From the IMG/VR virus record IMGVR_UViG_2541047173_000019: a DNA stretch of 4,005 nt. One strand, given 5' to 3'. The DNA is from a virus (lineage: Duplodnaviria > Heunggongvirae > Uroviricota > Caudoviricetes). The notes below the pieces were generated by a model. That model did not search any database and had not been told where the DNA came from. It saw only the letters and a program-made list of their open reading frames with translations. Positions within the stretch are counted from its first letter, which is position 1. Each line of letters begins with the position of its first letter. This document shows, in pieces, positions 2,315 to 2,354 of this stretch. Both the position numbers and the translations under genes were made by a program.

Positions 2315-2354
2315 ACAATAAAAAACTGTTTTTGTGTCAACAGTTTTTAATTGT
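2315..2354. promoter_or_regulatory. left operator (OL-like): inverted repeat of two 15-bp half-sites with a 10-bp spacer, carrying a -35-like TTGACA for leftward transcription
   Basis: ACAATAAAAAACTGT (2315-2329), spacer ttttgtgtca, ACAGTTTTTAATTGT (2340-2354). The first half-site is identical to the one at 3350-3364; the second matches 3374-3388 at 14 of 15 positions. TTGACA on the minus strand at 2340..2335. The -10 element is not clear. Confidence 0.6.

Follow-up and report, generated by a model that had tools for sequence, protein, structure and literature searches.

Five 15-bp dyads as probable operators of a lambda/434-style switch in a CP-933M/Sp4-type prophage of Escherichia coli

Introduction

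We analysed a 4,005-nucleotide stretch of viral DNA (Duplodnaviria; Heunggongvirae; Uroviricota; Caudoviricetes; IMG/VR record IMGVR_UViG_2541047173_000019), referred to below as the window. Judged by its sequence, the window represents the immunity region of a lambdoid cryptic prophage, of CP-933M/Sp4 type, from Escherichia coli O157:H7. It carries a leftward operon that includes dicB, a second leftward operon encoding a 133-aa repressor, a PaaA-family antitoxin and a ParE-family toxin, and, divergent from the repressor gene, the start of a rightward operon with ydaS and ydaT (Table 1). Copies of one 15-mer, ACAATAAAAAACTGT, occupy two loci: a left operator region (OL) beyond the terminator of the repressor-paaA-parE operon and a right operator region (OR) between the divergent repressor and ydaS genes. 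An earlier reading made from the sequence alone (the sequence-only reading) had labelled the 15-mer an operator half-site within 39-40 bp inverted repeats and had left undecided whether one dimer binds each 15-mer or each repeat. Our analysis makes it very probable that the region instead holds five 15-bp dyad operators, each bound by one repressor dimer and contested by YdaS, which together form a lambda/434-style switch. Three of the operators lie at OR, the other two at OL.

Many E. coli genomes carry beside potC/potD a prophage with 99.2% identity to the window, and 441 of 5,426 complete genomes of the species contain no less than 80% of the window. The toxin-antitoxin genes show 100% identity to the copies in O157:H7 strains, in which a neighbouring gene is annotated as 'ECs1072 family'. 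We take the prophage to be Sakai Sp4 / EDL933 CP-933M, a naming that relies partly on the Sakai locus tags. Searching a phage collection with the window DNA gave weak, partial matches only and nothing near-identical. A paaR2-paaA2-parE2 homologue has been stated to be on CP-933M (Jurenas et al. 2021, PMC8630535).

Results

A pattern search allowing up to three mismatches found exactly four copies of ACAATAAAAAACTGT in the window; 200 dinucleotide-preserving shuffles contained a mean of 0.30 matches, and none of the 200 reached four. The sequence-only reading had placed the 15-mers at these same positions, including the single mismatch at 2340-2354, and had described two inverted pairs with 9-10 bp spacers. 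Both descriptions agree with our results: in the output of the repeat finder the left pair has a 10-nt gap (2330-2339) and the right pair a 9-nt gap (3365-3373), and OL and OR, which lie 1,035 bp apart, are inverted copies of each other across 17-18 nt. What the earlier reading overlooked is a third site at OR (3325-3339), ACAGGTAAATACTGT, which matches the 15-mer at 11 of 15 positions, stands in the same 24-25 bp register as the other sites, and is unchanged in all 11 viral contigs from which the full OR region was recovered. The pattern ACA-N9-TGT occurs only once more in the window (226-240), about the chance expectation, and across viral contigs with this OR, 396 kb in total, copies of the 15-mer (≤1 mismatch) are confined to OL and OR.

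Table 1 Features of the window. Promoter hexamers were assigned from conserved layout; ORF, open reading frame; sRNA, small RNA.
Feature	Position	Strand	Basis
PL operon cargo: ydfA, ydfB, 129-aa ORF, DicF sRNA, dicB, ydfD	130..2128	-	Annotation of near-identical genomes
DicF sRNA gene, between 129-aa ORF and dicB	681-732	-	Rfam, 65.7 bits
PL -10 TAGATT (inferred)	2310..2315	-	TAGATT in 40/41 sequences (window and viral contigs); TAnnnT in relatives
OL1, putative 15-bp operator filling PL spacer	2315..2329	+ copy	0 mismatches; same register to -35/-10 in 6 relatives
PL -35 TTGACA (inferred)	2335..2340	-	TTGAC[A/G/T/C] kept in relatives
OL2, putative 15-bp operator directly upstream of PL -35	2340..2354	- copy, ACAATTAAAAACTGT	1 mismatch; kept as OL1 partner at 23-25 bp
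Intrinsic terminator of repressor-paaA-parE operon, just upstream of OL2	2362..2387	-	Scan: stem 2387-2372, then TTTTTTT
ParE-family toxin, paralogue of ParE2	2406..2693	-	Pfam ParE_toxin; PDB 5cw7, E = 3e-36
PaaA-family antitoxin, paralogue of PaaA2	2693..2884	-	Pfam PaaA2; PDB 3zbe, E = 1.4e-20
133-aa repressor, 434-like helix-turn-helix and PaaR2/DicA-type C-terminal domain	2912..3313	-	Pfam HTH_3; PDB, homology
PRM -10 TAAAAT (inferred), ends 6 nt before repressor ATG	3320..3325	-	Kept in relatives
OR3, putative weaker operator ACAGGTAAATACTGT in PRM spacer	3325..3339		ACA-N9-TGT, -26 from ATG, window and 4 lineages
OR2, putative central operator between PRM and PR -35 regions	3350..3364	+ copy	0 mismatches; -51 from ATG, window and 5 lineages
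PR -35 TTGATT (inferred)	3364..3369	+	TTGAnn in 5/6 distant relatives
OR1, putative operator filling PR spacer	3374..3388	- copy	0 mismatches; -75 (-74 in one) from ATG, window and 5 lineages
PR -10 TAGGCT (inferred, weak, 3/6)	3388..3393	+	TA(G/T/A)nnT right after OR1 in relatives
YdaS-family Cro analogue, PR operon gene 1	3422..3694	+	Pfam YdaS_toxin; recognition helix AQQTVWQW
YdaT binding motif TTGATT-N6-AATCAA at ydaS stop/ydaT start	3671..3688		Exact; chance expectation 0.04
YdaT-family CII analogue, continuing past window end	3678..4005	+	Pfam YdaT_toxin; annotated so in near-identical genomes

The sites are locked to promoter hexamers. Of these, TTGACA (minus strand, 2340-2335) and TTGATT (3364-3369) had been noted in the sequence-only reading and are present as it placed them; both start on the last T of the upstream 15-mer. 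The same layout is seen in all relatives, in which the PR -35 (TTGAnn) begins on OR2's last T, OR1 makes up the spacer, and the -10 (TAnnnT) begins on OR1's last T; PL mirrors PR, with OL2 and OL1 in these roles (TTGACA, TAGATT). Among close relatives the OR1-OR2 spacer exists in 12 variants, and only TGAT, part of the -35, is constant. At PRM a TAAAAT/TAGAAT hexamer begins at the last T of OR3, and TAAAAT, TAGAAT or TAAGAT is found at the same 6-nt distance from the repressor start in the window and five relatives; Arsenophonus has TATAAT about 7 nt before the likely start. The 108-bp intergenic region thus contains three 15-bp dyads in register with -35/-10 hexamers, and a second set of sites is found at PL (OL1, OL2, 2315-2354), as in lambdoid switches. 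The centre of OR2 lies about 43-44 bp from either predicted start (PR, PRM), a distance at which lambda CI activates PRM. No Shine-Dalgarno sequence precedes the repressor ATG, and together with a conserved -10 ending 6 nt upstream this suggests a leaderless repressor mRNA. Leaderless translation has been shown experimentally for the paralogue PaaR2 (PMC8630535).

A protein search with the window repressor gave a graded series of homologues, and their genomic contexts were inspected. Repressor identity to the window was 80-81% in Salmonella, 69-70% in Pluralibacter, 68-69% in Morganella, 65-70% in Raoultella / Klebsiella, 64-66% for a second E. coli type, 58-61% for others, 44-48% in Arsenophonus and 42-50% in an uncultured source; a scan of one genome per species returned a single relative, Arsenophonus. 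Counted from the start codon of the repressor gene, ACA-N9-TGT stands at -75, -51 and -26 in the window and in its Salmonella, Raoultella and Pluralibacter relatives; the uncultured relative has -74 in place of -75 and keeps the other two offsets. Of the OR sites Morganella retains just the first two, and Arsenophonus has two clear sites (-67, -18) in a shifted register. A second pair of sites, 23-25 bp apart, lies downstream of the immunity operon in every locus that extends far enough. 15-mers of this form are found at matching offsets from the repressor start in related prophages, the kind of comparison that the sequence-only reading had proposed.

In an unbiased alignment of OR from six lineages, 24 of 45 columns inside the sites are invariant against 7 of 66 outside them, and within the sites the invariant columns fall mainly at the outer five positions of each half (20/30), with fewer in the centre (4/15). 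In addition, 33 sites (66 half-sites) were selected by ACA-N9-TGT, with positions 4-5 left free in the search; position 4 is a purine in all 66 half-sites and position 5 is T in 52. Some 15-mers are perfect palindromes, e.g. ACAGTAAATTACTGT, ACAATAATTTATTGT and ACAAGATGATCTTGT. The centres of the 15-mers and the spacers vary among relatives at 42-81% repressor identity. Because the gap between sites ranges from 8 to 10 nt across relatives while site length is always 15, these comparisons point to the 15-mer itself as the recognition unit, a full dyad operator ACA(A/G)T-N5-A(C/T)TGT. The palindromic 15-mers, the fixed offsets and the loss of the 39-bp symmetry in relatives all contradict the earlier description of the 15-mer as a half-site.

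The sites go with the repressor and not with the toxin-antitoxin cassette. Variant viral contigs (L029 7562-8200, L038) encode a repressor about 97% identical to that of the window and keep OR and OL, which argues for this association since they have no paaA-parE; the OL-OR distance is 683 bp in the variant lacking the cassette. Salmonella and Raoultella have unrelated ORFs in the same slot. Judged by these comparisons, the paaA-parE pair acts as a swappable cassette inserted between OL and the gene for the repressor.

The helix-turn-helix domain of the repressor (residues 11-67) has the N-terminal domain of phage 434 repressor as its best PDB match (E = 3e-5). Its TQQTVQQ aligns to 434 TQQSIEQ, so that Q34, Q35 and Q39 correspond to 434 Gln28, Gln29 and Gln33. 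Crystal structures of 434 place these glutamines in contact with base pairs 1-4 (ACAA) in each half-operator. All 10 Cro/YdaS proteins compared open helix 3 with Gln-Gln, the window YdaS having AQQTVWQ and 434 Cro KQQSIQL, and the sites are probably shared with the Cro-like YdaS; a PDB search with YdaS gave nothing significant. Natural variants at residue 39 also bear on the reading. A relative with R39 (L011) has the operators ACACAAAAAACGTGT and ACACAATAATTGTGT, one with K39 (L007) has ACAC/TAAC-type half-sites, and in two of three lineages R or K at this residue goes with ACAC-type half-sites.

An AlphaFold model of the repressor (mean pLDDT 79) shows a Cro/C1-type helix-turn-helix at 1-67 with the recognition helix at 34-41, followed by a low-confidence linker and a helical hairpin (86-96, 100-131). 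Foldseek with this model returned generic XRE-type helix-turn-helix matches only and no solved structure covering the C-terminal domain. Homology to PaaR2 covers the C-terminal half, with 42% identity across 98 aa that peaks within the last ~50 residues, and identity to DicA is 28% over 111 aa (E = 6e-12). PaaR2 and DicA combine a related C-terminal domain with different N-terminal domains and entirely different operators. A Pfam search of the repressor gave helix-turn-helix families only, with no match to the LexA-like cleavage domain Peptidase_S24, and a response to RecA is unlikely, as it is for PaaR2.

Phage 434, the closest solved relative of the DNA-binding domain, is also a close parallel for the operators. 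As read from the deposited 434 genome, these are OR1 ACAAGAAAGTTTGT, OR2 ACAAGATACATTGT and OR3 ACAAGAAAAACTGT, all 14 bp and spaced by 22-23 bp. Both systems have the Gln-Gln...Gln helix, ACA(A/G) operator ends around AT-rich uncontacted centres, and three OR sites in regular register with OR3 within the PRM spacer; between 434 OR3 ACAGTTTTTCTTGT and ACAGTTTTTTATTGT of the window the difference is in essence a single base in the centre. However, the 434 operators are of the form ACAA-N6-TTGT, whereas those of the window and its relatives are 15 bp (ACA-N9-TGT) at a spacing of 24-25 bp, and the window has two OL sites compared with three in 434. OR2 lies between the PR and PRM -35 hexamers in the window, which are back to back in 434. 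The window repressor has a different C-terminal domain from that of 434 cI, without its LexA-like/S24 cleavage domain; only residues 11-67 align, and homology does not extend over the full length. Its PRM transcript is probably leaderless, in contrast to that of 434 with an annotated ribosome-binding site.

The gene order of the window is that of CP-933P. There, PaaR2 and YdaS give footprints in the DNA between paaR2 and ydaS and act as repressors of PR, PRM and a PL beyond parE2, YdaT activates a PRE-like promoter, and PaaR2 is reported to octamerise (PMC8630535). In both prophages repressor, PaaA, ParE, terminator, and PL with its operators follow one another opposite a divergent YdaS/YdaT pair; the toxin-antitoxin genes and the repressor C-terminal domains are homologous, neither repressor has a cleavage domain, both repressor starts look leaderless, and an identical YdaT motif, TTGATT-N6-AATCAA, stands at the same place. 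The two nevertheless differ in what recognizes DNA. PaaR2 starts MQKKE, with an unrelated N-terminal domain and no Gln-Gln helix, and in CP-933P OR has four operators and OL three, all of them 18-bp repeats of GTTTAGTAA type and unrelated to those of the window. These two features rule out that the window is CP-933P itself. In a CP-933P-type locus (L014) the repressor aligns with that of the window over its C-terminal part only, and the intergenic DNA has CACTAAAC repeats and no ACA-N9-TGT sites. Since N-terminal domains and operators are both unrelated, the two prophages are, as far as sequence can tell, heteroimmune. The second E. coli repressor type (L007/L008, 64% identical) forms a third heteroimmune paaR-paaA-parE locus in E. 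coli, with recognition helix AQQSVQKW, ACAC/TAAC-type operators, and the order site, -35, site, -10 kept.

Qin of E. coli K-12 resembles the window in a different way. DicA is homologous along the full length of the repressor, the downstream operon holds ydfA, ydfB, dicF, dicB and ydfD, and the DicA-controlled dicB promoter is laid out as site, -35, site, -10; unlike in the window, the recognition helix differs, operators are of the TTAG...CTAA type, and there is no toxin-antitoxin cassette. With lambda the window has in common a divergent PR/PRM region with three operators, a distant OL, and what is here probably also a leaderless repressor mRNA. By analogy, the octamer loop of lambda CI may have a counterpart in a repressor family of which PaaR2 is reported to octamerise. 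The operator sequences are unrelated to those of lambda, OL has only two sites, there is no RecA-cleavable domain, and OL and OR are separated by ~1 kb versus 2.4 kb in lambda.

Discussion

The observed sites, their geometry and conservation, and the protein homologies suggest how binding, site order, cooperativity, activation and looping might be organized. With OR1 in the PR spacer and OL1 in the PL spacer, occupancy of either would block RNA polymerase. OR2 and OL2, which abut the -35 hexamers, would probably be bound cooperatively with their neighbours, and OR2, which also abuts the weak PRM -35, may activate PRM as lambda CI does. OR3 is predicted to be a weak site, and its place in the PRM spacer would provide negative autoregulation at high repressor level, so that with a third OR site over the repressor's own promoter the switch would also autoregulate. 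The ACA ends would be read by the 434-type Gln-Gln...Gln recognition helix. The PaaR2/DicA-type C-terminal domain may oligomerise; given its homology to octamerising PaaR2, the four strong sites at OL and OR could be bridged by four dimers, an octamer that would close a loop of ~1 kb. Hence the core of the earlier proposal, that one repressor controls both early promoters through these sites, is upheld by gene content, promoter layout, conservation and the 434-like helix, and its half-site and two-site OR components are replaced by five complete operators.

Several points weigh against this interpretation. A strict sigma-70 consensus scan of the window did not call PR, PL or PRM: the PR -10 agrees with the consensus at only 3 of 6 positions, the PRM -35 is poor, and PL was missed because its spacer in the window is 19 bp, compared with 18 bp in most relatives, whose operators stand 9 nt apart. 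As sites were selected by ACA-N9-TGT, there is some circularity in the conservation at positions 1-3; only the unbiased OR alignment, the bases at positions 4-5 and the constancy of the offsets are independent of that selection. Covariation with residue 39 fails in a third lineage with R39 (L012), which has mixed bases at operator position 4. A simple recognition code from residue 39 to base 4 therefore fits two variant lineages and fails in this one; we rejected it in that form, and the correspondence is suggestive, not strict. An operator of 15 bp in place of 434's 14 bp means that the dimer geometry must differ. The searched literature yielded no binding data for the 133-aa repressor, and oligomerisation and looping are suggested only by C-domain homology to PaaR2.

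The mirror symmetry of the pairs in the window is striking, with 0 and 1 mismatches between inverted arms versus 7 and 6 in direct orientation, and would be explained if the functional unit were the whole 39-40 bp pair, bound by a tetramer with its dyad in the -35 spacer, both inverted arms being needed and their symmetry selected. We consider this unlikely but not negligible. The symmetry does extend beyond the window. Variants were counted in the window and 41 viral contigs carrying this OR, OL being present in all but one contig (41 sequences). In 32 of these, OL consists of a variant 15-mer repeated perfectly in inverted orientation, so that T occupies position 6 of each arm, whereas the OR arms share A; in distant relatives 9 of 11 neighbouring pairs have fewer mismatches inverted than direct. 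However, OR3 keeps to the register as a single 15-mer, the arms are separated by variable gaps whereas the length of the 15-mer is fixed, and no long inverted repeat exists in Raoultella, Pluralibacter and Arsenophonus, where inverted and direct orientation give about equal scores. On this comparison, the perfect repeat of 39 bp is a feature specific to this lineage. Because position 6 does not discriminate in the logo (A 39, T 21), the match between arms looks like mutational homogenisation, and quasipalindrome template switching or OL/OR conversion is favoured over selected symmetry as the process that keeps the arms alike. The window OL is itself a minority type: a 10-nt gap and an OL1 matching the OR version of the 15-mer occur together in 6 of 41 sequences, and the majority of relatives combine a gap of 9 nt with ACAATTAAAAACTGT as a perfect inverted repeat. 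The window OL may be a product of OL/OR conversion and may weaken PL. The concerted identity of the two arms at each locus is the sole remaining oddity, and it is doubtful that it is maintained for function, with the chimeric repressor sitting as a dyad-symmetric tetramer on the -35 spacer and four equal sites tailored for one octamer closing the 1-kb loop.

Explanations that dispense with the 133-aa repressor as the reader of the sites are far less probable. That another protein binds them (a host nucleoid or global regulator, or YdaS alone), the 133-aa protein acting elsewhere, would suit their AT-richness, and the link between sites and repressor is itself drawn from sequence. We hold it to be highly unlikely, given that the sites travel with this repressor type across genera, change with the N-terminal domain (PaaR2, DicA, K39/R39 variants), match a recognition helix that reads ACAA in 434, and are absent as 15-mers from the remaining 396 kb of prophage DNA examined. 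A role as nucleic-acid structures, whether RNA hairpin (terminator or attenuator) or DNA cruciform, was likewise rejected as very improbable. The OR and OL pairs of the window do fold well as RNA (-15.9 and -14.2 kcal/mol, z = -5.2 for both), as do Salmonella OR and one other relative, but folding is no better than in shuffles for Raoultella OR (z = +0.4) and Pluralibacter OR (z = -1.2) and takes a different form in Salmonella OL, the 15-mers being retained in each. Both repeats also lie upstream of the predicted PR and PL starts, with the -35 in the loop, and so would not be transcribed from those promoters, and a separate canonical terminator is already present 3' of parE. As inverted copies over 17-18 nt that flank repressor-paaA-parE, OL and OR might finally be seen as terminal inverted repeats or recombination sites of a mobile repressor-toxin-antitoxin cassette. 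This we regard as scarcely credible: the sites flank the repressor alone when the toxin-antitoxin genes are missing (L029) or replaced (Salmonella, Raoultella), they are locked in register with promoter hexamers, and no transposase or recombinase gene lies between the two loci.

With five dyad operators as the preferred reading, it would be these sites that set the immunity specificity of the prophage, a widespread cryptic element of E. coli O157:H7. Searches of the literature for the 15-mer strings and for a CP-933M repressor or operator found no description of these sites, and these particular operators appear not to have been described before in the literature searched. The switch beneath them would govern a leftward operon with the division inhibitors DicB and DicF and an immunity operon with a ParE toxin, and would be heteroimmune to the characterised CP-933P switch in the same strain. 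The repressor looks like a case of natural domain shuffling, a 434-like reading head on a PaaR2/DicA tail with a 434-like operator one base pair longer. The arrangement is otherwise an ordinary lambda/434-style one, and the understanding of such switches is unchanged.

Additional features

The remaining features lie in the two early operons. As the PL operon includes both DicF and DicB, derepression of PL would release two cell-division inhibitors. A 19-nt inverted repeat (524-542 / 653-671) lies near the DicF gene. The first ~30 nt of the predicted PL transcript (window 2270-2305, minus strand) are C-rich and G-poor, ACCAACCACCCACCCCGCCCCACAGAAC, and a C-rich leader is kept in L003, L009, L010, L007 and Qin (L058 1935-1955) despite differing operators and even repressor types. 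Such a leader could act in a rut-like or nut-like way; a gene for an N-like antiterminator is not evident. A 61-aa ORF at 1070-1255 on the plus strand is antisense within the leftward operon and has two CxxC-like motifs (CPACN...CPEH); it has no Pfam match and is annotated as hypothetical in every matching genome.

In the rightward operon, the motif at the ydaS/ydaT junction corresponds to the YdaT motif TTGATT-N6-AATCAA defined by footprinting in CP-933P (Prolic-Kalinsek et al. 2023, PMC9986795), and a YdaT-controlled PRE-like element is probably present here too. The left half of the motif (TTGATT) repeats the PR -35 hexamer. At its right end the window has 38 bases (3968-4005) that are unaligned to the best-matching E. 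coli genomes, the matches to which end at 3967, and this suggests a mosaic junction inside ydaT.

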